DNA from: a virus
Strand: one strand, 5' to 3'
IMG/VR virus record: IMGVR_UViG_3300045988_163958
Coordinates: 1-39,258 of that record
Length of the DNA: 39,258 nucleotides
The translations under genes and the position numbers were made by a program. Under the pieces are notes generated by a model. The model worked only from the letters and a program-made list of their open reading frames with translations. It made no database searches and was not told where the DNA came from. This document shows positions 3,357 through 27,883 of the stretch, one piece after another. The stretch's first letter is position 1, and each line of letters begins with the position of its first letter.

Positions 3357-4357
3357 GGCATTTTCTCAACATCATTTTTTTCCTTTCTCTTTTTCTTTTT
3401 CTTCTCTTTTTGTTCAAGCTCAACTTTATCCATCACATTATCAAATACAAGTTCTAAATTTGTGTAATAATCTCCATCTTGAAAAATATGAGTATCATTT
3501 TTAATTAAAAAGCTTCCTATTAAGCCAGTATTATGTTCTTTTATTGCGACAGAATATCCTGCTATTAAATCAGGATTACCATTTGTAACGACATTAGCAT
3601 AACTCTGTTTACCTTTTAACATATCCCTAGCATTAAATATATTGTTCATATCCTTGGTGTATTCAACAACATCTTGAAATAGCCCATATTTCTTTTTATC
3701 TTCCTCATTGGCTACCTTATCCATTATTTGTTGTTTCTCTTTTTCTGTTTTATAAACTATAATTTGATTTACCATATCTTCTATAGATTCACTATATCTA
3801 GTACTTCTTAAATCATTATAAGAATCGAGTTCTAAATCTTCTAATAATACCCCTTGATCTGCTATTTCTATTTTCCCATTATCACAAAATATCGAATATA
3901 TAGCTTTGTCTTTATTATGTTGTATTGTATAAGCAGCCAAAATTATTTGATATGCCGATTTATCTATAGCTGGAAAAGTGCATTTAACTTTATCTTTTGG
4001 AAGTCTTCCAACTTCAAGTCCTAATTCTCCACATATTTCTTTTACTATTTCTGAGGGAACTCTATTGAAATAATTTTTTACAAAGAAATTTTTATTCAAA
4101 TAAATCGAATTATCATAAGCAATAAAATTTGTATTTTTTCTATCTGTATTTTTTTCTACTGTAAATACTTTCCCTTTAAACAAAGTTTCAGTATTATCTA
4201 ATTTAAATTCAATATTATCTCCAACATTTACATTTATATTTTCAGTTGTTTGAAAATCAACATTTAATTTTCTTGAACTTCCATATATTCCACCACTCCA
4301 TTCAACTTTAGTAAATTTTTTTTTATGTATATTTCCATTTATTTTTATTTCAACCAT
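3347..4357 (-). CDS. Tail protein, XkdQ-like / late control gene D-like, with a poly-Lys C-terminus.
   Basis: 336 aa, after the XkdP-like gene. The C-terminus reads EQKEKKKKKRKEKNDVEK. Confidence 0.45.
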   Translation of the reverse strand: MVEIKINGNIHKKKFTKVEWSGGIYGSSRKLNVDFQTTENINVNVGDNIEFKLDNTETLFKGKVFTVEKNTDRKNTNFIAYDNSIYLNKNFFVKNYFNRVPSEIVKEICGELGLEVGRLPKDKVKCTFPAIDKSAYQIILAAYTIQHNKDKAIYSIFCDNGKIEIADQGVLLEDLELDSYNDLRSTRYSESIEDMVNQIIVYKTEKEKQQIMDKVANEEDKKKYGLFQDVVEYTKDMNNIFNARDMLKGKQSYANVVTNGNPDLIAGYSVAIKEHNTGLIGSFLIKNDTHIFQDGDYYTNLELVFDNVMDKVELEQKEKKKKKRKEKNDVEKMPWE

Positions 4358-4358
4358 A

Positions 4359-4802
4359 TTAACCTCTTTTGTATAAACCAGTTATATTATCAGTAATTTT
4401 CCCTTGATCCCTAATTTCAATCAGTGAAATACTTATATTTATATCTCCTGTTCTTTCTACTACACTATATTGTAATCTTTCTATTTTGCACTTATATGTT
4501 ATTAATAATTCAGGAACTATAAAGGTTAAATCTTTCTTTTCTTTTTTCCATTTTTTTAACAGTTCTACTGCTGCTGTTGGTGGCAACGGATTTTTTAATG
4601 AGAAAAAACGTGATATTATTGATGGAAGAAAGGTACTAAAACTTATTCTGTCAGCTCTTCTTTCACCAAAATTAACCTTTTCTCCAAAATCTATTATATT
4701 TACAGATACTGTATTTTGTTCTGTTGTTATTTCTAAATCAAGTGGTGGTATCACAAATACAAAAGGTATTTTACCATTTAATAATATAAAGTTTGGTTTC
4801 AT
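4359..4802 (-). CDS. Tail protein, XkdP-like position (no LysM seen).
   Basis: 147 aa, immediately downstream of the tape-measure gene. Confidence 0.3.
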   Translation of the reverse strand: MKPNFILLNGKIPFVFVIPPLDLEITTEQNTVSVNIIDFGEKVNFGERRADRISFSTFLPSIISRFFSLKNPLPPTAAVELLKKWKKEKKDLTFIVPELLITYKCKIERLQYSVVERTGDINISISLIEIRDQGKITDNITGLYKRG

Positions 4803-4812
4803 ATATTTTCTC

Positions 4813-6534
4813 CTATTGTTGTGTTAATTTAGCTTCTTCAATTTTTTTTACCATCTCTTCACCTATTTCTTTCACAAGTTCATCCCTATTTATATTTTTA
4901 TCTCCAATTTGAACTGATACCCCTGTTATATTTATATTGGAAGTGCCTTGATTAAAAACATTTGGTTTTTGTACGGTGTTATCCACTCGAACAAATCCAT
5001 TCGGTGTTAAATATCCACCAAATTCTGAAATAGCATTTTGTTTTCTTTGAAATAACCCTTCTCTTATTTGTTTTGGGCTTAAACCTAAATTAATTTCTCT
5101 TTCTCTCGATCTTTCATCTCTCCACTTTATCATTTCTGGTGAATTAATATAAGGTTCTAAAGCACTACCTAATTTATTACCAAGATACACACCTGTACCC
5201 CACCCAAGTGCACCAGCTGTTATATATGGGTGAGCTGCTGCAAATATAGCACCTTTTAAAGCTGCGTAAGTTCCTAATACAATTTTACCTTTTCGATTTA
5301 TTTCATCTAAGAAAGAGTTTATATTTTCGGTAGATAATTTATTTTGTGTTATATCATTCAATATTTTATTAAATTCTGTTAATTTTTCTGTTATAATTGG
5401 GTCAATACCTTTTCCAAGTTGAATTTGAAAACCTTCGATAGCACTTTTTGTTTCTTCTATTTTTTGCCTAGAAGTTGATGACATAGTATTATAAAATTTA
5501 TCTAAAGCTCCAGTAGCATTATATACAGCATTTTCAGCTTTTTTTGTGCTTTCAGTTGAATTGTTCATAATAGAACTCCATATTTTTAAACCTTCTGTTC
5601 CTGCTACGGTAACTATCCAGTTATTTCTTTGGACTTCTGTCATTTTTTCAAGTGCTGGGCGACTTTCATCAATTATTTTTCTCAAACCTTTAAAATTTCC
5701 GTTTTGATCTTTCAGTTCAACATTAGCATATTTTAAAGCTTTTTTCATTTCTGTAGTCGGTTTTGCCAAACGTGCATACATAGCATTTAGTCCAGTACCA
5801 GCTTTCTCTCCTTTTATTCCATTATCTGCAAGTATTCCTAATGATATTGCTACTTCTTCAAAACTTTCACCTAAAGCTCTTGAGGAAGCTCCAACATATT
5901 GAAAAGCATTACCCATCATTCCGACTGTTGTATTTGTATTATTAGCTACATTGGCTAATACATCTGTATACATACCAACATCTTTTACACTTAAACCGAA
6001 AGCACTTAATGAATCTGTTACTATATCTGAGGTTTTAGCCAAATCTTCTCCAGTTGCAACAGATAATTTTAATAATGTAGGAGTAACAGATAAAATTTCA
6101 TTAGTTTTATACCCAGCCATAGCTTGATACATTTGAGCTTCTGCAACTTGCTTTTGAGTAAATCTAGTTGTATTTCCAAGTTGCTCAACTTGTTTATTCA
6201 TTAATGCCTGTTCTTTAGCACTAGCTCCAGTTATAGCTGCATTTTTTGTTAATTGTTCATTCAAATCAACATATTTTAAATAAGATTTTCCAGCAAAAGC
6301 AGCAGCAGCAGCTCCAGCAATTTGCCCATATCTTTCAACGGTCTTAAAATTATTTTTTATACTATCCGATGTAATTCCTAATTGATTACCTATGCCTTTT
6401 AAAGAACCACCAATTACTTTTCCACCATCAGCCACTTGGCTACTAAAGTTCTTAAAACTTTTAGAAGCTGAATTTATTTTAGATGAAAAATTGTCTTTTA
6501 ATTCTAAAGCTGCACTTAATATATAATTACTCAC
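4813..6534 (-). CDS. Tail tape measure protein.
   Basis: 573 aa, Ala/Gly-rich and helical. It lies between the chaperone and the baseplate genes. RBS AGGAG sits at 6543-6547 (minus strand). Confidence 0.65.
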   Translation of the reverse strand: MSNYILSAALELKDNFSSKINSASKSFKNFSSQVADGGKVIGGSLKGIGNQLGITSDSIKNNFKTVERYGQIAGAAAAAFAGKSYLKYVDLNEQLTKNAAITGASAKEQALMNKQVEQLGNTTRFTQKQVAEAQMYQAMAGYKTNEILSVTPTLLKLSVATGEDLAKTSDIVTDSLSAFGLSVKDVGMYTDVLANVANNTNTTVGMMGNAFQYVGASSRALGESFEEVAISLGILADNGIKGEKAGTGLNAMYARLAKPTTEMKKALKYANVELKDQNGNFKGLRKIIDESRPALEKMTEVQRNNWIVTVAGTEGLKIWSSIMNNSTESTKKAENAVYNATGALDKFYNTMSSTSRQKIEETKSAIEGFQIQLGKGIDPIITEKLTEFNKILNDITQNKLSTENINSFLDEINRKGKIVLGTYAALKGAIFAAAHPYITAGALGWGTGVYLGNKLGSALEPYINSPEMIKWRDERSREREINLGLSPKQIREGLFQRKQNAISEFGGYLTPNGFVRVDNTVQKPNVFNQGTSNINITGVSVQIGDKNINRDELVKEIGEEMVKKIEEAKLTQQ

Positions 6535-6567
6535 TGTACCCTCCTTTATTATTTTTCAATAAAAAAA

Positions 6568-6600
6568 TCCCCAGATAATTGAATATCTGAGGATTGGAAT
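6568..6600 (-). terminator. Rho-independent terminator on the minus strand after the secreted-protein gene. It contains the left copy of the 23-bp moron inverted repeat.
   Basis: The minus-strand RNA CCUCAGAUA-UUCAAU-UAUCUGGGG forms a 9-bp stem and is followed by AUUUUUUU. Confidence 0.55.
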
Positions 6601-6613
6601 TAATATTATTTTT

Positions 6614-7114
6614 TTAATAGTACCAGAAATCATCTTCTTTTTCTACTGGTGGTTTTTTAATAGGTTTATCTAAATTGAAATCTTGCCAGTAAGCTTCTTT
6701 ATACATCTTGGTAAATCCTGCGCCTGAAACACTAAACGGAATTCCCTTAAAATTAAATTTAACAATAGAACTATCTCTTAATGACAATATTATTTTTCTG
6801 GCTTCTTGTCCATAAAAAAACATATACTTCCCATTAACAATTTCGCCAGAAACAGTCATTGTCCCATGTACTGATTTCATTTTTATCACTGCTTTTTTTT
6901 CTGAAAAATAATCATTAAAGAAAATAAAACCAGCAACCTTTGCTCCTTCGTTGTTTTTACCTACCATCATTGTTCCATAGCCTTCTTTTATAACTTCCCC
7001 TAGAGCATAATCTTTTGTAGGATCACCAAATTCATCTGATTGCTGAACTTTTTCCCAAGAAAAACTTAAACTAAAAATTAATAAACTAAGCAATAATATT
7101 AATAATTTTTTCAT
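6614..7114 (-). CDS. Secreted protein (signal peptide) of unknown function; moron gene.
   Basis: The N-terminus MKKLLILLLSLLIFSLSFS is a signal peptide. The gene lies inside the IR-bounded cassette. Confidence 0.5.
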   Translation of the reverse strand: MKKLLILLLSLLIFSLSFSWEKVQQSDEFGDPTKDYALGEVIKEGYGTMMVGKNNEGAKVAGFIFFNDYFSEKKAVIKMKSVHGTMTVSGEIVNGKYMFFYGQEARKIILSLRDSSIVKFNFKGIPFSVSGAGFTKMYKEAYWQDFNLDKPIKKPPVEKEDDFWYY

Positions 7115-7223
7115 AAAATACCTCTCTTTTTAATGTAGTCATTATAATTTTACTTCACAATTTTAAAAAGTCAAGTCGTTTTATTAATTGTATTCCACCA
7201 GTAATTCTACTAGGGGAATGATT

Positions 7224-7955
7224 TTATTCTTTAGTTGTAAGTTTTTGTTGACCTAAAATTTTTACTGTATTTTCTAAAACTCTATCTTTATCTAAACCTA
7301 ATTCATTAATTTTATCTAAGTTTTCTTTTTCTATTTCCAGTTCTACGATTACTGGTAATTTCTCTTTTGCAGGGTCATAATCACTAGGAGTTTTAAAATC
7401 CCAGAAATTACTTGTTACCTGTTTTGTTTTTGTTTCTAGTTCTATTTCTGCTTTAGAATATATTTCATTTAATTTCTCAAATAGATATGCTATCTGGTTT
7501 TCTAAATATTCAGCTTGGTCTAATCTGGTTCTTACTCTATTAATTAACCAATCAGGCTTTTTATCAACTTCTATAGGTTTAAAGTTATTTACTCTCTTTC
7601 CAAAGAAAGCATCTGATAAAACATCTTTAGCTTTTAATTGATAGATCATTAATTTTTCTTTTAATTCTCTATCAAATCTAGCTGGATTTATTTTTGCCAG
7701 CCAAATAGGAAGATAATCAAGTTCTATCATTAAAGTTTCTTGTATACCTCCTTTAGTAAAAAGGGGAGTGAATTTTAACCCTCCTTTCAAAAGCTCATCA
7801 TTTTGAACTTTTGCTCTTTGATTCCTTCTTTGTGTTTCATCCATGCCAAGATTATCACACACATTTTTTACACTGATATAAACTTTAGAATCAATAATAG
7901 TGCTAATAATTTTGTTTCCTTGAAAATCCACTTCTTTGATGATTAAATCTTTCAT
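7224..7955 (-). CDS. Bro-N domain protein (antirepressor-like) carried as a moron.
   Basis: LIIKEVDFQGNKIISTIIDSKVYISVKNVCDNLGMDETQRRNQRAKV fits the Bro-N consensus. RBS GGAGG is present. Confidence 0.6.
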   Translation of the reverse strand: MKDLIIKEVDFQGNKIISTIIDSKVYISVKNVCDNLGMDETQRRNQRAKVQNDELLKGGLKFTPLFTKGGIQETLMIELDYLPIWLAKINPARFDRELKEKLMIYQLKAKDVLSDAFFGKRVNNFKPIEVDKKPDWLINRVRTRLDQAEYLENQIAYLFEKLNEIYSKAEIELETKTKQVTSNFWDFKTPSDYDPAKEKLPVIVELEIEKENLDKINELGLDKDRVLENTVKILGQQKLTTKE

Positions 7956-8035
7956 ATAAATACCTCCATTTTTTTATTTAAAAACAGAGTAATATATGAT
8001 ATAATATACTTGCTTGGAGTATGTGATTATATCAT

Positions 8036-8080
8036 ATGCTTACCCCATTTCAGACATTTATTTGAGGTGGGGTATTTTTT
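8036..8080 (+). terminator. Strong plus-strand intrinsic terminator with no plus-strand CDS upstream. It may terminate a short antisense or regulatory transcript.
   Basis: TACCCCATTTCA-(10 nt loop)-TGAGGTGGGGTA forms a 12-bp stem and is followed by TTTTTTATTT. Confidence 0.5.
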
Positions 8081-8412
8081 ATTTACTTTCTTCTTTTTTT
8101 AAATCTTTTTCAATAAGTTCTAAGATATAACTTTTTAATGTTTTACCTTCTTTTGCTAATTTTATTTTTATTTCTCTGTATAAATTTTCATCTACCTTAA
8201 AATTTATTGTTTTTTCCATTCCATCACCTCACTCCAATATTACAACATTGCAACAAATAAAGTCAAGCTTTTTTTTATTTTTTTTGGAGAAAGGGAAGTT
8301 GTGTTTTTTAAATCTTCTATTTAAAGATATTATTCAATTTGTCAATCATACCAGTTTGATTTTATGCCTCCAAAAAGTTATAATAATAATGCAGGGCTCT
8401 TTTGGAGGTTAA

Positions 8413-8724
8413 TTGAAGGTAAAAGTTACTGGATCATTATCATTAGAAAAGAAACTTAAAGAACTAAAAAATATGAAAACCAAAGAGAAAGTTTCTTTTG
8501 ATGAACTTTTTAATGAAAAATTTATGATAAAATATACAAATTTTAATTCTATTAATGAGTTAATGGTTAAATGTAATATATCTACTGAAGATGATTTAAC
8601 TACTAACTTTGATTTACTTGAAAAAGAAATAAAGCATAATACTAAATTCTCTTCATGGGAAGATATGAAGCACACTGCTGCTCAAGAGCACATAAAGAAA
8701 AAATTAGATAAAATATTTAAATAA
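8413..8724 (+). CDS. Hypothetical small charged helical protein (TTG start).
   Basis: RBS GGAGG lies 4 nt upstream. Its promoter is TTGATT-N17-TATAAT at 8355-8377. The gene is flanked by the 9-bp inverted repeat CAGGGCTCT/AGAGCCCTG. Confidence 0.4.
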   Translation: MKVKVTGSLSLEKKLKELKNMKTKEKVSFDELFNEKFMIKYTNFNSINELMVKCNISTEDDLTTNFDLLEKEIKHNTKFSSWEDMKHTAAQEHIKKKLDKIFK

Positions 8725-8893
8725 TTATATAGAGCCCTGTCCTAACATACTCCAATCAATTACTATATTCAAAGCTAATTTTTCTATAATTTTTTTAATC
8801 TCTCTCTGATATTTTCTTATTTTTCTTCTATCTCTTTCTTTTTTCATATTTCACCTCCTATTAAGTACATTAAAATAATAAAGTTACCTTTAT

Positions 8894-8916
8894 TTCCAAT
8901 CCTCAGATATTCAATT
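8894..8916. repeat. Right copy of the 23-bp inverted repeat that bounds the moron cassette. It is the reverse complement of 6578-6600.
   Basis: TTCCAATCCTCAGATATTCAATT versus AATTGAATATCTGAGGATTGGAA: a perfect 23/23 match. Confidence 0.8.
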
Positions 8917-9050
8917 GCCAAGGTTCATTTTTTATTATATTATCATGCCATACATTATCAGAAGATCACTAATTTTAAGTTCTCTAAGTTCTTTTAATGT
9001 ATGGCCTTTATTAAGGTAATGAGCGATTGTGAAAGCTCTCCAATCGCCCT

Positions 9051-9416
9051 TTATGAGTTTTTTATATCATTCTCAACTATTTCTATTGCACCTTCACCAT
9101 AAAAACCAGATTTATTAAGGAGAGCCTTTGCTATTTCTCTTACTTCTCCAATTGTAAATATTTTACCTACTATTTCAACTGGTTCAAATGCTATTCCATT
9201 TAATTTACTATCTTTTAAATTAGGGCTTATACAATTGTCATAAATTAAAAGTTCATCACTTTGTTTCTCTTCCACTGCTGATATAAGTTCTTTAAAACTT
9301 AATGGTTTTAATTCAATCACCTTATCCAGCCTTTTAATTTTAACTTTTATAGTTTTATCTTTAGTATTTTCTTTTGCTATTCCTAAAATATCTTCTATTG
9401 TTAATAGTTCATTCAT
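9051..9416 (-). CDS. Tail assembly chaperone (XkdN-like).
   Basis: 121 aa, directly downstream of the tube gene. Start and stop overlap as ATGA. Confidence 0.4.
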   Translation of the reverse strand: MNELLTIEDILGIAKENTKDKTIKVKIKRLDKVIELKPLSFKELISAVEEKQSDELLIYDNCISPNLKDSKLNGIAFEPVEIVGKIFTIGEVREIAKALLNKSGFYGEGAIEIVENDIKNS

Positions 9417-9856
9417 TATTTAACCTCACTTTCGTATTCGACATCTTCAGGAGTAAATCCGAAAGGCATTTCTTCAGAAATAGCTTCTCCTTTAGTTGCG
9501 TTTATTATATTTAAAGTATTAAACCATACATTATCTATAGATACTCTTTCTTCTTGTCCTCCTACTGCATCAGGGTCAAGTATAGAGAATACTATTTTGC
9601 TTCTTGTATCATTTCCTTTTTTCCAATTTTTTAAAATTTTATTCGCTCTTGAATAAACTTTATTAAGGGTTAATGTTCCTTCTCCAGTAAAGCTTGTTAT
9701 TTTACTATCTACAGACATACCAATTTGTACATCTGCCCTATTAGCTGTAATAGAAGCCGTTACTGCTGAAAACTCAGCTATGAGTTCATTATCAACCCAT
9801 AATTTTCCATACCCTCCTGTAAGTGTTTTATTTCCTATTAGATTTTCGCCTGCCAT
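9416..9856 (-). CDS. Tail tube protein (XkdM-like).
   Basis: 146 aa, after the sheath gene. The N-terminus MAGENLIGNKTLTGGYGKLWVD is typical of myophage tube proteins. Confidence 0.55.
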   Translation of the reverse strand: MAGENLIGNKTLTGGYGKLWVDNELIAEFSAVTASITANRADVQIGMSVDSKITSFTGEGTLTLNKVYSRANKILKNWKKGNDTRSKIVFSILDPDAVGGQEERVSIDNVWFNTLNIINATKGEAISEEMPFGFTPEDVEYESEVK

Positions 9857-9865
9857 CTAAACCTC

Positions 9866-10942
9866 CTACATTGTTATTACCAGATGCAAATCAATCATTG
9901 TATTGGCAAATCTCACATCTCCAGCTAAAAATACTTGATGTCCACTTGGATATCTTAATATTTCTAATTCTGTCAACTCATCTGGATCTTTACCATCTGC
10001 AACTACAACTTGTTTTTGTTTCTCTAGGTCTATTTCTATTCTATTGTCATAATCAGCACTTAATACATTAGGCTGTAGATCTTTAAAGTATATTTTATTT
10101 ACATTAGAACAGAAATTCATCTTATTATCATAATTATTTAGATAAATTCCCATCCAATAGTTTTTAAATGTATCTCTAATATCATCAACAACAATACACA
10201 TACCCTCAACAACTTTTATGAATCTAGTATCAGATTTCCATGTGCTATCAAAAGTAGTTTTACTGTTTACAGCCATGTTTATTCTTACTTTTCCATCATC
10301 ATTATATAGGCTTAACTTTCCTAATGCTGCCTCAACATCTTGAACTTCTTTTAAATCAGTTAAAGTTAAATTATCACCTGATCTATTTAATGGAAGTCCA
10401 GCAAAAACACCAGCGATTCCCATTGTATACTCTTGTGCTGTAAAATCTCCTAAAGTTGATTTATAAGTTCCTTTATTAGCTAATTCAACTATAGACACAT
10501 GGTCTGTATTATTAGCATAAGAACTGACATATTTAACCGTTTTTTTAATTGCTTCAGTTCCAAATACTTGCTTTACCCATGTTACAATAGCAGTATCTTC
10601 TTCATTTGTTGCAGTTGGTGCTGCTAACCAATTCATTTTTCTACTATCCAATTCTTTAAGTATTGCTGATATTTGTTCCTCTGCTCCTTGTACTCTCACT
10701 ACAATCTTTTTAGGACTATATGTTTGCATAGCTAATTTTATTAATTTTATGCTTTTTTCTTCCCATTTGCTTTCATCTAAATCAGCTATAGTGTTTATGG
10801 TTACATATTTTTCAGTTTGTGTTGTATCTTTAATAATTGCATATAATATCCCTAATGCACTTCTTTGGATAACTGTTGTTGCCAAAGTCTTAAAGATAAC
10901 ACTTATATCTGGTGTTGGATTTATTTGTCCTACTCCTGCCAT
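9866..10942 (-). CDS. Tail sheath protein (XkdK-like, short).
   Basis: 358 aa, preceding the tube gene in a contractile-tail module. Confidence 0.5.
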   Translation of the reverse strand: MAGVGQINPTPDISVIFKTLATTVIQRSALGILYAIIKDTTQTEKYVTINTIADLDESKWEEKSIKLIKLAMQTYSPKKIVVRVQGAEEQISAILKELDSRKMNWLAAPTATNEEDTAIVTWVKQVFGTEAIKKTVKYVSSYANNTDHVSIVELANKGTYKSTLGDFTAQEYTMGIAGVFAGLPLNRSGDNLTLTDLKEVQDVEAALGKLSLYNDDGKVRINMAVNSKTTFDSTWKSDTRFIKVVEGMCIVVDDIRDTFKNYWMGIYLNNYDNKMNFCSNVNKIYFKDLQPNVLSADYDNRIEIDLEKQKQVVVADGKDPDELTELEILRYPSGHQVFLAGDVRFANTMIDLHLVITM

Positions 10943-10954
10943 TTATTCCCTCCT

Positions 10955-11407
10955 TTATGACTTGAATGATAAGTTCAAATCTTTAAATTTAACTTCTAAT
11001 TCTTGCATAAGCTCATAATCATATGGTTTTCCATACTGATCAAATAAGCTAATACTAAATTCATAATGCCCTACTGTATCAACTATGTTCATATTAGTAT
11101 CTGACATAGTTAATCTTCTATCTAATACATGCAATATCTTATTTCCTAATATTTCAAAATGATTATCTATATTTTCTAAAGCTTCCCAAGTTTCGGTATT
11201 ATTTCCTTCTTTGCTTTTAGGAAAATACATAATATCATAGTTAAGAGTTTTTAACTCTCTATAATTACTATCCCATTCTTTAGAATAGGTTAATAAATCT
11301 ATGAAATAACATGGTCTGTTTACTTTATTTATATTCTCATATTCAACATCTATTCCTAATTCTGCTACTTTCTTAACAATAGCTTTTCTTATATCAATAA
11401 CTTTCAT
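10955..11407 (-). CDS. Hypothetical neck/tail completion protein.
   Basis: 150 aa, between the head-tail joining genes and the sheath. Confidence 0.3.
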   Translation of the reverse strand: MKVIDIRKAIVKKVAELGIDVEYENINKVNRPCYFIDLLTYSKEWDSNYRELKTLNYDIMYFPKSKEGNNTETWEALENIDNHFEILGNKILHVLDRRLTMSDTNMNIVDTVGHYEFSISLFDQYGKPYDYELMQELEVKFKDLNLSFKS

Positions 11408-18453: not shown

Positions 18454-19155
18454 TTAAGCTACTTCTAATAACTTTATGTCATAATTTACTATAGCTATAT
18501 ATTGAGTTCCTAATTCTTTACATTTTTGATATATTTCTTTATAGTAAACTTTTTTCTCCATGTTATCTTTTATAACCTTGCTGAATAAATCTTCTAATTG
18601 CTGTATTGATATAAGCTTTTTAAATTCAATTTTATCTCTTGAATTAGGTTCTACACCTACCAGCTTATTTACCAACTTACTATAAGTCATATAAAGCTTT
18701 CCTGAATTTTGACTTCCTTGTTCTGTTGCATATATTATCAAATCTTGTATAACATCTGTTTCTTTTCTTCTAACTAGCTTTCCTTTCTCTCTAGTTAATA
18801 GCCAGTCTGAATCTTTTTTATTAGATAGTATTTGCTCCATTTCCTCAAATCTGTTGATATATGCCACATTTAAATCAAATGCTTTTTCTACAGAAGAATT
18901 ATAACCACCTATTAATTGGGCTATACCCTTTTTAGTTATTAAATAATTTCTATATACTTGTTTATTTTGTGGATGTGTATATTCACTTGGGATATAGAAG
19001 TCTGCTGAAAGTTTAGCACCCCCAAATCTTTCTACATAATCATCTATTTTAGCCAATAAATTTCTATGTTCTACACCTAATTCTTCAGCTACTCTATTAC
19101 TCGTTGTCACTAAAATTCCGTTTTTATTCTCGATCTTAACTAAAATTTGTTCCAT
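18454..19155 (-). CDS. Phage regulatory protein, Rha/ORF6N-family (antirepressor-like).
   Basis: The N-terminus reads ILVTTSNRVAEELGVEHRNLLAKIDDYVERFG. RBS AAGGAG is present. Confidence 0.45.
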   Translation of the reverse strand: MEQILVKIENKNGILVTTSNRVAEELGVEHRNLLAKIDDYVERFGGAKLSADFYIPSEYTHPQNKQVYRNYLITKKGIAQLIGGYNSSVEKAFDLNVAYINRFEEMEQILSNKKDSDWLLTREKGKLVRRKETDVIQDLIIYATEQGSQNSGKLYMTYSKLVNKLVGVEPNSRDKIEFKKLISIQQLEDLFSKVIKDNMEKKVYYKEIYQKCKELGTQYIAIVNYDIKLLEVA

Positions 19156-19383
19156 TTTCTCATCTCCTTTTTTTATTGAGATGTTGGATAGGCAGTGTAT
19201 ATCCTTACCTATCCATCTTTTATGCAGTTTTTGTTAAAAGTTTGAACTGCTAACAGCGAAAGGTAGTTTGTGTTATCCTAGGCCACTCCTACCAGGTAGA
19301 ATTATTTAAGTTTAAGGACTTCACATATAAAGCTCCTATACCCAGACAGGCGTACTTTACATCTTCACTTATAACCAGTAAAA

Positions 19384-19460
19384 GGGAATAACAGGATTCG
19401 AACCTGTATAATGCTCTCAAGCAATTGTTTTACCTACCTCGTAAGTTAAACTATATTCCC
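19384..19460 (-). tRNA. tRNA-like element. The acceptor stem and T-arm are perfect; the D and anticodon regions are irregular.
   Basis: The minus strand reads GGGAATA...ACAGG-TTCGAAT-CCTGT-TATTCCC. The acceptor stem is 7/7 paired and the T-loop TTCGAAT is consensus. The D and anticodon arms cannot be folded canonically by hand. One option is a TTAC/GTAA stem with loop GAGGTAG. Confidence 0.45.
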
Positions 19461-19918: not shown

Positions 19919-20725
19919 CTATGCTATTTTATTTATAAGTTTATTTATAAAATATATTTGCCCTTTTCCTGTAATCTTAGGAGTTTTCTTTATTTCTATT
20001 TCTCCATTGCTATGATTTATTGCAGTTTTCTTTATTTCAAATAAGCCAAGGTCCATAGCTCTTTGAGTTGGTAAATTGTAATCTGCTCCTTCTTTCTTTA
20101 TTAGATATCCTTGTTCTCTTAACCAAGCAAACATTCTTTTTTCTCCTGTGTCATATCCATTCTGTTTTAATGTTTTTGCTAATTCTCTTATTAAAATAGA
20201 ATCCTTAGATGCTGTTACTGCTTCAGCAAACATCACTTTTGGTTTATTCTCTTCAATTTTAATTTCTAATTGCTGTATTCTTTGATTTCTTTTTTCTATT
20301 GTTCTTTGTGCTATCATTAAGGCTTTTGCCATAATATCTTCATCGGTGTCATCTTGATTTTCTACTATATACCCACCGTTTTTTCTGATAGATGGAAGTA
20401 TTTCATCGCATACTAAATCTTGAAATTTTCTAGCTACTTCATTATTGGCTTTCATGCAAAGTTTATAAAATACATTCTCTGGAATAAAATCATTTTCCAC
20501 ACTTGTGTGGTTGACCTTCAAGTCTTTCGACAACTTGTTGTCGAAACCTATTTCTTCAAGATATTTCTTAATTGTAGCCCATCTTATAGATTTATATTCT
20601 TTTCCATTTTTCATTTCCGTCTTTTCAAATCCCAACCCTCTTGCCACATCTTCTAAATTAAGATATGCAGTTCCTTTTTCATCAATATAACCTCTTACAT
20701 TTTTGTTTGTCACCAAATTATTCAT
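19919..20725 (-). CDS. Antirepressor with a Bro-N N-terminal domain and a KilA-C-like C-terminal domain.
   Basis: NVRGYIDEKGTAYLNLEDVARGLGF is a Bro-N motif, and 268 aa is a typical Ant length. Confidence 0.6.
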   Translation of the reverse strand: MNNLVTNKNVRGYIDEKGTAYLNLEDVARGLGFEKTEMKNGKEYKSIRWATIKKYLEEIGFDNKLSKDLKVNHTSVENDFIPENVFYKLCMKANNEVARKFQDLVCDEILPSIRKNGGYIVENQDDTDEDIMAKALMIAQRTIEKRNQRIQQLEIKIEENKPKVMFAEAVTASKDSILIRELAKTLKQNGYDTGEKRMFAWLREQGYLIKKEGADYNLPTQRAMDLGLFEIKKTAINHSNGEIEIKKTPKITGKGQIYFINKLINKIA

Positions 20726-27052: not shown

Positions 27053-27236
27053 TGGAGATACAGAACTTAAAATACATTTGATAAAAGAAGGTTTAGAACA
27101 AAATAAAACGTTAAAAGAAATAGAGGAAGATATATTAAATAAAAATTTAGTTTTACATGATTTGGTAGATTTTATGAAAAAACCAAATATAATAGAAAAT
27201 TTTAAACATTTTAGATTTAGGAGGGTTGAAAAATGA
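27045..27236 (+). CDS. Hypothetical protein.
   Basis: RBS GAGGTG before ATG at 27045. The listed start at 27036 lies inside the previous gene. Confidence 0.35.
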   Translation: MNSGDTELKIHLIKEGLEQNKTLKEIEEDILNKNLVLHDLVDFMKKPNIIENFKHFRFRRVEK

Positions 27237-27883
27237 CAAAATTAATTACATTAGAAAAAGAAGGAATGACATCATTGGAGATAGCAGAAATAACTGGAAA
27301 ACAACATGTGCATATTATGAGAGATATTAGGGACGAGATAAACAAACTAGGTGAAAATATAGGACTATCCATTTTTGGATTGTCCTCTTACAAAAATTCT
27401 CAAAACAAAGAACAACCTATGTATAATTGTACTCCTGATGGAGTAATGCAATTAGCTGCCAGGTATGATGCAGTAGTAAGATATAAGTTGATACAAAAGG
27501 TAAAAGAGATTCAAAAAAGTTCACAAAAATTACCACAAACTTATTTAGAAGCTTTAAAAGAGCTAGTAAAGGTAGAGGAAGAAAAACAACAACTTGAGCA
27601 TAGAGTAAACAGCTTAGTACACTCTAAAAAACTTTATACAACAACTGAAATAGCCAAAGAATTAGGTTTTAAAAGTGCTATATCTTTTAATAAAAAATTA
27701 GAAGAAGATAAAATACAGTATAAATGTAATAACACTTGGGTATTATGTTCTAAATATGCTGATAAAGATTATACAAGTATAAAACAAACAGAGTTAGATA
27801 ATGGAACTGTGATATTTGATAGAAAATGGACAGGATTAGGAAGAGATTTCTTATTAGGTAAATATATAGAATGCAATGAATAG
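27233..27883 (+). CDS. Rha-family phage regulatory protein / antirepressor.
   Basis: The N-terminus SLEIAEITGKQHVHIMRDIRDEI plus MQLAARYDAVVRYKL is Rha-like. RBS AGGAGGG. Confidence 0.6.
   Translation: MTKLITLEKEGMTSLEIAEITGKQHVHIMRDIRDEINKLGENIGLSIFGLSSYKNSQNKEQPMYNCTPDGVMQLAARYDAVVRYKLIQKVKEIQKSSQKLPQTYLEALKELVKVEEEKQQLEHRVNSLVHSKKLYTTTEIAKELGFKSAISFNKKLEEDKIQYKCNNTWVLCSKYADKDYTSIKQTELDNGTVIFDRKWTGLGRDFLLGKYIECNE

Follow-up and report, generated by a model that had tools for sequence, protein, structure and literature searches.

The 39,258-nt sequence of IMG/VR virus record IMGVR_UViG_3300045988_163958 (the window; positions refer to it unless a related locus is named) carries, between the tail assembly chaperone gene and the tape measure gene of a temperate phage, a set of accessory genes, here called the bay, bounded by the two arms of a perfect 23-bp inverted repeat. 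The backbone genes of this region all lie on the minus strand. The arm at the exit of the bay belongs to a strong intrinsic terminator that immediately precedes the tape measure gene, and, as judged from the aligned relatives, its complementarity to the arm at the entrance has been kept by mirrored changes in two phage lineages. The pattern resembles a terminator with its antiterminator, in that two mutually exclusive, co-varying helices would have the 5′ stem in common. We propose, with a probability of about 0.4, that the arms constitute an origin-selective terminator, in which an antiterminator acting over kilobases would mask the exit terminator only in those transcripts that begin upstream of the bay.

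According to this proposal, a late-operon transcript running into the bay would carry the entrance strand. The exit sequence would emerge 2–5 kb later and would pair with the entrance strand over 23 bp, extendable to ~40 bp including the U-tract, and this pairing would block formation of the terminator hairpin and let RNA polymerase proceed into the tape measure and baseplate genes. A transcript from a cargo promoter (for the antirepressor gene ant, the secreted protein and others) would not contain the entrance strand and would consequently stop at the exit, so that, as proposed, cargo expression in the lysogen is kept out of the tail and lysis genes. Such a device would allow cis-encoded, protein-free carriage of morons in the late operon of a phage that has no lambda-type Q antiterminator. 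A description of a bounding complement of this kind was not found in the literature.

The two arms and the exit terminator

The 23-mer AATTGAATATCTGAGGATTGGAA is located at 6577–6599 on the plus strand, and its exact reverse complement at 8894–8916. An earlier interpretation of the window from its letters alone (the sequence-only reading) had placed the left arm one base too high, at 6578–6600, and had taken the repeat to be real rather than a chance product, which is borne out here. The perfect repeat is exactly 23 bp long, with the flanking base on each side unpaired, and is the longest perfect inverted repeat in the 39-kb window; the probability of its arising by chance is, by our own estimate, ~3e-4. 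With mismatches allowed, it extends inward to 42 nt at 81%. No further copy with up to three mismatches exists in the window beyond the two arms, and 100 shuffles yielded no match. A search for additional copies, as the sequence-only reading had advised, returned seven matches in IMG/VR, all at the chaperone/tape-measure junction and none elsewhere. The 23-mer is not a common terminator motif, and the relatives described below carry different genes with the same repeat, rather than the same genes without it.

A canonical intrinsic terminator, which reads on the minus strand as AAUCCUCAGAUA UUCAAU UAUCUGGGGAUU followed by U7 (-16.2 kcal/mol), overlaps the exit arm: the arm takes in 4 nt of its 5′ flank, the 5′ stem (12 nt), the loop (6 nt) and the first nucleotide of the 3′ stem. 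The exit block as a whole occupies 6556–6599 (minus strand), with the stem-loop at 6595–6566 and the U-tract at ~6567–6561. The attribution of the left arm to a minus-strand terminator just upstream of the tape measure gene was therefore correct. The tape measure gene (4813–6534, minus strand; Pfam PhageMin_Tail, E value 9e-54) is the first backbone gene past the bay. No promoter-like site was found between the exit terminator and its start codon, indicating that this gene depends on read-through.

The entrance arm (8894–8916, minus strand), the proposed antiterminator strand, is part of a 46-nt non-coding block at 8888–8933 consisting of an A-run, UGAACCUUGGC, the 23-nt arm and AUAAAG. Both arms thus lie in untranslated gaps. 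In the same mRNA, the entrance arm is the exact complement of the 5′ flank, the 5′ stem and the loop of the terminator. In the remainder of the block, an inverted copy of the 3′ stem is seen in decayed form (CCUUGG for CCCCAG, and an A-run opposite the U-run). The entrance arm alone folds weakly; decay of the 3′-stem copy would have left it weakly structured, as a free antiterminator strand needs to be.

The 23-bp duplex has a predicted energy of -35 kcal/mol, as against -16.2 kcal/mol for the hairpin. In their sequence context, the entrance and exit regions reach -27.0 kcal/mol when folded apart and -57.0 kcal/mol when folded together, with ~40 intermolecular pairs; among these, CUGGGG in the 3′ stem is joined to CCUUGG by means of G-U pairs, and the U-tract is matched to the A-run. 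Among all windows of the upstream 6 kb, none pairs with the exit as well as the entrance arm does (z = -8.5); the corresponding value for the related locus L062 is z = -8.0.

Other functions considered for the entrance block were rejected. As an opposite-strand terminator, the plus strand of the arm reaches only -5.6 kcal/mol (z = -0.9). A TTTAACA-like stretch after the block, considered as a boxA-like motif, is not conserved, and, with regard to processive antitermination RNAs (put, EAR, nut/boxA), a comparison of 6400–9200 with Rfam gave no match at E values up to 1.

Related loci and covariation of the arms

Approximately 65 related loci were gathered from IMG/VR, JGI/ENA metagenomes and Logan assemblies. 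Two scans of species-representative genomes gave nothing useful, and searches with an 18-mer from the frameshift extension of the chaperone gene and a 14-mer from the entrance block returned mainly chance matches. Those related contigs whose record names state a source come from human gut metagenomes.

Cargo is present between the chaperone and tape measure genes in every one of the ~65 loci, over 0.5–4.8 kb, and its gene content is different in each relative, with 1–8 genes per bay. The repertoire comprises antirepressors of the P22_AR_N or Rha type, KilA-N proteins, helix-turn-helix (HTH) pairs, DUF1883, DUF2513 and SAP-domain proteins and secreted proteins, arranged as a mosaic in which sub-modules are common to several loci. 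The interval is thus accessory cargo inside the tail module, flanked by the chaperone gene, including the -1 frameshift extension, on one side and by the tape measure gene on the other, as had been claimed from the sequence. The comparison with relatives by which an empty site was to be recognized revealed none: the interval is absent from none of the ~65 loci, and the smallest bay (L024, 495 nt) holds one open reading frame (ORF). A permanent accessory-gene bay within the tail operon is the best account of the interval; a moron region in a tail module is itself a known kind of arrangement.

The bay starts only past the frameshift partner of the chaperone. The slippery site A AAA AAC (9057–9063) leads into a -1 frame extension of 41 codons (8935–9063, minus strand), identified by translation and kept as coding in the relatives, whose stop codon lies at 8935–8937. 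In the type-1 loci, which include the window, the chaperone-proximal arm always lies within the 46-nt non-coding block, AAAAAATGAACCTTGGC followed by the arm and ATAAAG, which varies only in L014 and L060 among the 42 type-1 loci. Past this block, conservation drops abruptly (92% variable columns). The type-1 exit arm is always found just upstream of the ribosome-binding site of the tape measure gene, with 0–2 changes, and the entrance arm is less variable than the terminator arm. In L066, only the exit arm is seen; the contig begins within the cargo.

A second lineage of myophages (type 2: L062, L068, L008, L056 and L188–L206) exhibits the same order of elements, namely the stop of the frameshift extension, an A-run, an arm, 1.9–4.8 kb of cargo, a terminator and the tape measure gene. 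No similarity is detectable between the type-2 chaperone and that of the window, and the tape measure proteins share only ~27% identity along part of the protein. The type-2 pair of arms is AATTGAATACTGAGGGATAAAA / TTTTATCCCTCAGTATTCAATT. Compared with type 1, it has one deletion, one insertion and a changed end segment, each mirrored in the other arm; the inserted C is matched, in addition, by an extra G in the 3′ stem of the terminator.

Across 12 haplotypes, 98.9% of the helix cells are in standard pairs, and 10 of the 23 pairs have changed on both sides. When the partner was slid by 1–3 columns as a control, 31–51% were paired, with 0–1 double-changed pairs. The competing terminator hairpin is 96.2% paired, and 3 of its 12 pairs have double changes. 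In L014, a G-C pair is replaced by A-U at a position where L009 has a G-U intermediate. Cognate arms from 20 haplotypes gain -17 to -36 kcal/mol upon pairing, as compared with -9 to -16 kcal/mol for cross-type pairs. All mismatches seen fall outside the stretch that pairs with the 5′ stem. The decay of the outer part of the block is common to types 1 and 2, indicating that the entrance block is older than their split, and only 22–23 nt of it stayed strictly complementary after the split.

The type-2 entrance block also reads as a good sigma-70-type promoter, TTGGCA-16-TAAAAT (L062, 1926–1965), with the arm as its spacer, and transcripts from it would begin just past the arm. In L024 and L025, TTGACT-17-TATAGT occupies the position of this promoter. 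A promoter is not the general function of the block; the type-1 form has no acceptable -10 box.

Several loci deserve separate description. In L056, a type-2 phage, the bay (5926–9189) includes the C-terminal 84% of a chaperone gene of type 1, together with the frameshift extension of that gene and an entrance block of the same type. The acquired type-1 piece has given this locus two tandem entrance blocks and one exit; upstream of it, L056 keeps its own cognate type-2 entrance arm. In L008 (IMG/VR 3300045988_169646, 3823–10523), one contig combines a type-2 bay that is complete with a type-2 tape measure gene that is truncated; the truncated gene runs into a type-1 sheath gene at residue 122, and the type-1 tube gene, chaperone gene and entrance block come next. 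L008 is either a chimeric assembly or a natural recombinant. A DUF2513 gene beside the entrance arm lies on opposite strands in L060 (6549–6920; type 1) and in L189, L191, L197 and L198 (type 2), with ~69% identity. This flip concerns a single gene, with the neighbouring modules collinear, and is not an inversion of the bay. In L011, a terminator internal to the bay (GGAGAAGGGGAATAAATCCCCTTCC then T6; 11034–11072) follows two leading cargo genes, one of which has an HExxH motif (checked in L011 only). In L024, two similar terminators of the type AAGCACTTAG...CTAAGTGCTTTTTT, with the same orientation, are separated by 5.85 kb within the late operon (1876–1909 and 7727–7765), and late transcription there must pass them.

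Alternative explanations for the arms

Several observations weigh against an origin-selective terminator. The more distantly related L024 and L025, each with one cargo gene and a leader in which a promoter is clear, carry a strong terminator at the equivalent position that has no complement upstream, indicating that some read-through occurs there without the proposed device. In addition, the bays of L005, L011/13/21, L016, L036/37 and L056 contain an internal strong terminator on the sense strand (GGAGAAGGGGAAUAAAUCCCCUUCC plus U6). Upstream complements of this internal terminator and of those in L024 and L025 were searched for, and none was found; late polymerase must thus pass some terminators by other means or through leakiness. 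The covariation comes essentially from two lineages plus L014, and conservation of the entrance block does not exceed that of the coding sequence next to it, the two being about equal (15% versus 21% variable columns). A bias toward G-U pairs, considered as proof of a role at the RNA level, was abandoned: the ratio was 5:1 at first and became 5:2 with more loci, such that single-arm changes in the mRNA sense comprise five G-U-compatible and two incompatible ones, which is not significant. The predicted accessibility of the arm is average to good only. Furthermore, pairing across 2–5 kb must kinetically outpace the local hairpin, and mirrored changes alone would also fit two DNA sites for one protein.

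If the same long-range helix is formed, it might serve in processing or stability instead: a stem of 23–40 bp would loop out the cargo and be cut by RNase III, as in rRNA precursors, and would keep cargo RNA, as well as antisense transcripts of opposite-strand cargo genes, apart from the messages for the chaperone and the tape measure. The perfect 23-bp helix, extendable to ~40 bp, would be a good RNase III substrate, the covariation favours pairing, opposite-strand genes are present in bays, other terminators are apparently tolerated by late transcripts, and the processing stems of rRNA provide a precedent (PMC8632103). We nevertheless regard this role as unlikely, for it leaves unexplained both why the complement ends at the boundary between the loop and the 3′ stem and why Watson-Crick complementarity to the 3′ stem was lost, and polymerase must get past the terminator all the same. 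The entrance arm might also be a functionless relic of an inverted duplication of the terminator, conserved through flanks that are reused when cargo is swapped by homologous recombination. The whole entrance block does look like a decayed inverted terminator module, conservation ends sharply at its inner edge as recombination flanks predict, variation within each type is small, so that recency accounts for part of the identity, and L024 and L025 manage without a complement. However, mirrored indels and substitutions between two lineages cannot arise neutrally, the outer part of the block decayed before the lineages split whereas 22–23 nt have been perfectly complementary since, and the entrance arm is less variable than the terminator arm, making this explanation unlikely as well.

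That the arms act as DNA, as a pair of inverted binding or crossover sites used by a single phage protein (either a regulator that acts by looping or a recombinase for exchange or inversion of the bay), is quite improbable. Two sites for one protein would indeed co-change, and identical inverted sites on either side of variable DNA are reminiscent of the Gin/Hin/Cin segments and of recombinase-mediated cassette exchange. Yet the only recombinase in the window is a tyrosine integrase ~23 kb away, with no invertase; most homologous cargo genes lie on the same strand, the DUF2513 gene alone being flipped, with no whole-bay inversion in the ~65 loci; and the junctions between conserved and variable sequence are found at differing distances from the arm. 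Nor do DNA sites explain why the repeat overlaps exactly the 5′ half of the terminator, or why the entrance block has a single-stranded design. An invertible segment of the Gin/Hin/Cin or shufflon kind was rejected on the same absence of an invertase from the window and of whole-bay inversion from every locus. The sequence-only reading had taken the repeat as the ends of an inserted cassette, which implies the terminal inverted repeats of a transposon-like element in the tail module. A perfect 23-bp inverted repeat around AT-richer cargo would fit this account; it is extremely improbable, since the arms stay put whatever the cargo, homology between lineages extends past both arms, and neither an empty site, nor a transposase, nor a target-site duplication was found. 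A transposon, insertion sequence or miniature inverted-repeat transposable element was rejected accordingly: the cargo encodes no transposase domain, the flanks (...CCCAGAT and GCCAAGG...) are not duplicated, and the site is fixed.

Cargo genes and comparison with known systems

The window encodes the proteins of a temperate phage, including the tyrosine integrase, an HTH repressor and antirepressors of the Rha and KilAC types, and its host is probably Fusobacterium in the gut. It has no close relative among isolated phages; the best matches are C. difficile myophages, with ~33% sheath identity. Upstream of the bay lie, all on the minus strand, the sheath gene (9866–10942), the tube gene (9416–9856) and, as the final backbone gene, that of the XkdN-like tail assembly chaperone (9051–9416; PHROG 4976, E value 6.6e-21; Pfam Phage_TAC_5). 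Three further antirepressor-type proteins (Rha, Bro-N+KilAC and Rha+KilAC) are encoded at 18454–19155, 19919–20725 and 27233–27883, respectively. A tRNA called by Rfam at 19383–19460 (minus strand, 41.8 bits, E value 1e-5) sits in the 760-nt gap between the Rha and Bro-N/KilAC genes; ARAGORN found no tRNA in the window.

The first cargo ORF, the 40-aa basic one already noted from the sequence, lies at 8725–8847 (minus strand) behind a conserved leader and a ribosome-binding site and has no promoter-like site of its own. The promoter-equipped plus-strand gene was likewise recovered: a promoter-like TTGATT-17-TATAAT (8356–8384) precedes a 103-aa gene (8413–8724), divergent from the genes that follow, whose product matches the C-terminal part of PHROG 2211 (E value 2.5e-13). 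Next on the minus strand is a gene overlooked by the sequence-only reading, which encodes a 46-aa Arc/Omega-like ribbon-helix-helix (RHH) protein (8079–8219; Pfam Omega_Repress, E value 8.6e-4; PHROG 37719, E value 2.5e-12; PHROG 582, Arc-like, E value 7e-3), an assignment that scores below Pfam's cut-off. Its promoter-like site, at 8266–8237, lies outside the gene range. It is directly upstream of the antirepressor gene (7224–7955, minus strand; PHROG 524), whose domain is P22_AR_N (Pfam, E value 3e-28) and not Bro-N as had been read.

The last cargo unit (6614–7174, minus strand) consists of a promoter-like TTGACT-16-TAAAAT (7174–7147) and the gene described earlier as that of a secreted protein; the 166-aa product (6614–7114) is confirmed, and of its secretion what stands is a signal-like N-terminal segment. 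Its homologues share 47–96% identity and are, all but one, without a name, the named one being from a Fusobacterium ulcerans metagenome-assembled genome. The AlphaFold2 model has a predicted local distance difference test score of 72 and matches Bartonella IalB weakly (E value 5e-3, TM-score 0.40), and phmmer gives a weak match to Serratia Rap2a (E value 0.09). Scans of the cargo with Rfam, PADLOC and NCBIfam returned no match. Promoter-like sites precede the secreted-protein, RHH, ant and plus-strand genes, at a frequency not above that in shuffles. The G+C content of 7001–9000 is 0.245–0.265, as compared with 0.30–0.32 in the flanking tail genes, a modest gap.

The palindrome and the plus-strand terminator noted previously upstream of ant are both real, at 7994–8037 and 8041–8074, respectively. 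The 12-bp arms of the palindrome each contain TGATATAAT, forming two face-to-face extended -10 promoters (TGnTATAAT) with predicted starts, at ~8012 (plus) and ~8019 (minus), that overlap. The palindrome is likely an operator for the RHH protein. Together with the terminator and its U-tract, it makes 7994–8084 (plus strand) a candidate source of a ~70-nt antisense RNA. The plus strand of 7990–8095 folds at -34.9 kcal/mol (z = -7.1), and the palindrome-terminator unit is nearly unchanged in five copies from four loci (the window, L008 with two copies, L014, and L039 in a different context). The predicted RNA (~8012–8084), which has no Rfam family, lies antisense to the last part of the RHH gene and the start of the intercistronic region, and the Shine-Dalgarno sequence of ant, at ~7960–7968, lies outside it. 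The suggestion of sar-like control therefore holds for an Arc-like gene next to ant and a conserved unit for a short RNA, and fails in that the RNA does not cover the ant ribosome-binding site. Judged on such predictions, the unit is a reasonable candidate antisense RNA and, as far as testable here, not a sar equivalent. The likeness to P22 immI lies in the Arc-type RHH gene directly upstream of ant; a difference is that sar covers the ant ribosome-binding site in P22. No Mnt homologue was recognized, and the product of the divergent 103-aa gene resembles no RHH or repressor family.

Morons bring their own terminators into phage late operons, and in lambdoid phages, where Q makes late transcription terminator-resistant, the Q-modified polymerase ignores them. 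To our knowledge, it has largely not been asked how late operons stay continuous in other temperate phages. If the proposal of an origin-selective terminator is true, a masked exit terminator would answer it for one group of gut phages, the terminator/antiterminator principle would be stretched from tens of bases to kilobases, and regulation would respond to where the transcript starts and not to a ligand or a protein. The arm pair could also serve as a compact insulator for engineered operons. The bay marks a hot spot at which gut prophages exchange antirepressors, regulators and secreted proteins, and, whatever the mechanism, co-varying mRNA complementarity at kilobase range is unusual and easily testable.

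The junction itself has a precedent in HK97, whose gene 15, the first moron ever described, lies at this position (Juhala et al. 2000; Cumby et al. 2012, reviewed in PMC3594210) and is expressed for the benefit of the lysogen (PMC3594210). In HK97, one small gene is present; the bay described here has 1–8 genes, is in no case empty and is flanked by a conserved sequence complementary to its own terminator. The ant moron, or immI region, of P22-like phages (mnt, arc, ant, sar, sieA) is thought to affect late-promoter read-through into the next late gene, and is likewise a hypervariable bay in a late operon that often contains an antirepressor with an Arc-type repressor (PMC2629481). In contrast to P22, the window phage is a myovirus with its bay at another junction, and no bounding inverted repeat is described for P22.

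Pairing over comparable distances occurs in rRNA precursors, in which the strands of the RNase III processing stems flanking 16S and 23S, 1.5–3 kb apart, pair co-transcriptionally and close around the RNA between them (PMC8632103). These stems are processing sites aided by a Nus/SuhB antitermination complex, whereas in the bay half of a terminator forms one of the strands and a conserved boxA-like element is lacking. In the retroregulation of lambda by sib, the fate of the RNA is set by its source promoter, with the pairing partner present in one isoform only. Promoter-dependent structure of mRNA isoforms is also seen in the sigma-B regulon of B. subtilis (PMC8208050). In both of these systems, translation or decay is controlled, and not termination at kilobase distance. 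The arms are most readily compared with attenuators and the expression platforms of riboswitches, in which two mutually exclusive helices share the 5′ stem of the terminator; both helices covary here. In known attenuators, the antiterminator lies within tens of bases and the choice is made by a ribosome, a protein, a tRNA or a ligand, whereas here no sensor has been identified, the arms are separated by 1.4–4.8 kb of exchangeable genes, and the proposed switch would be the start of the transcript.

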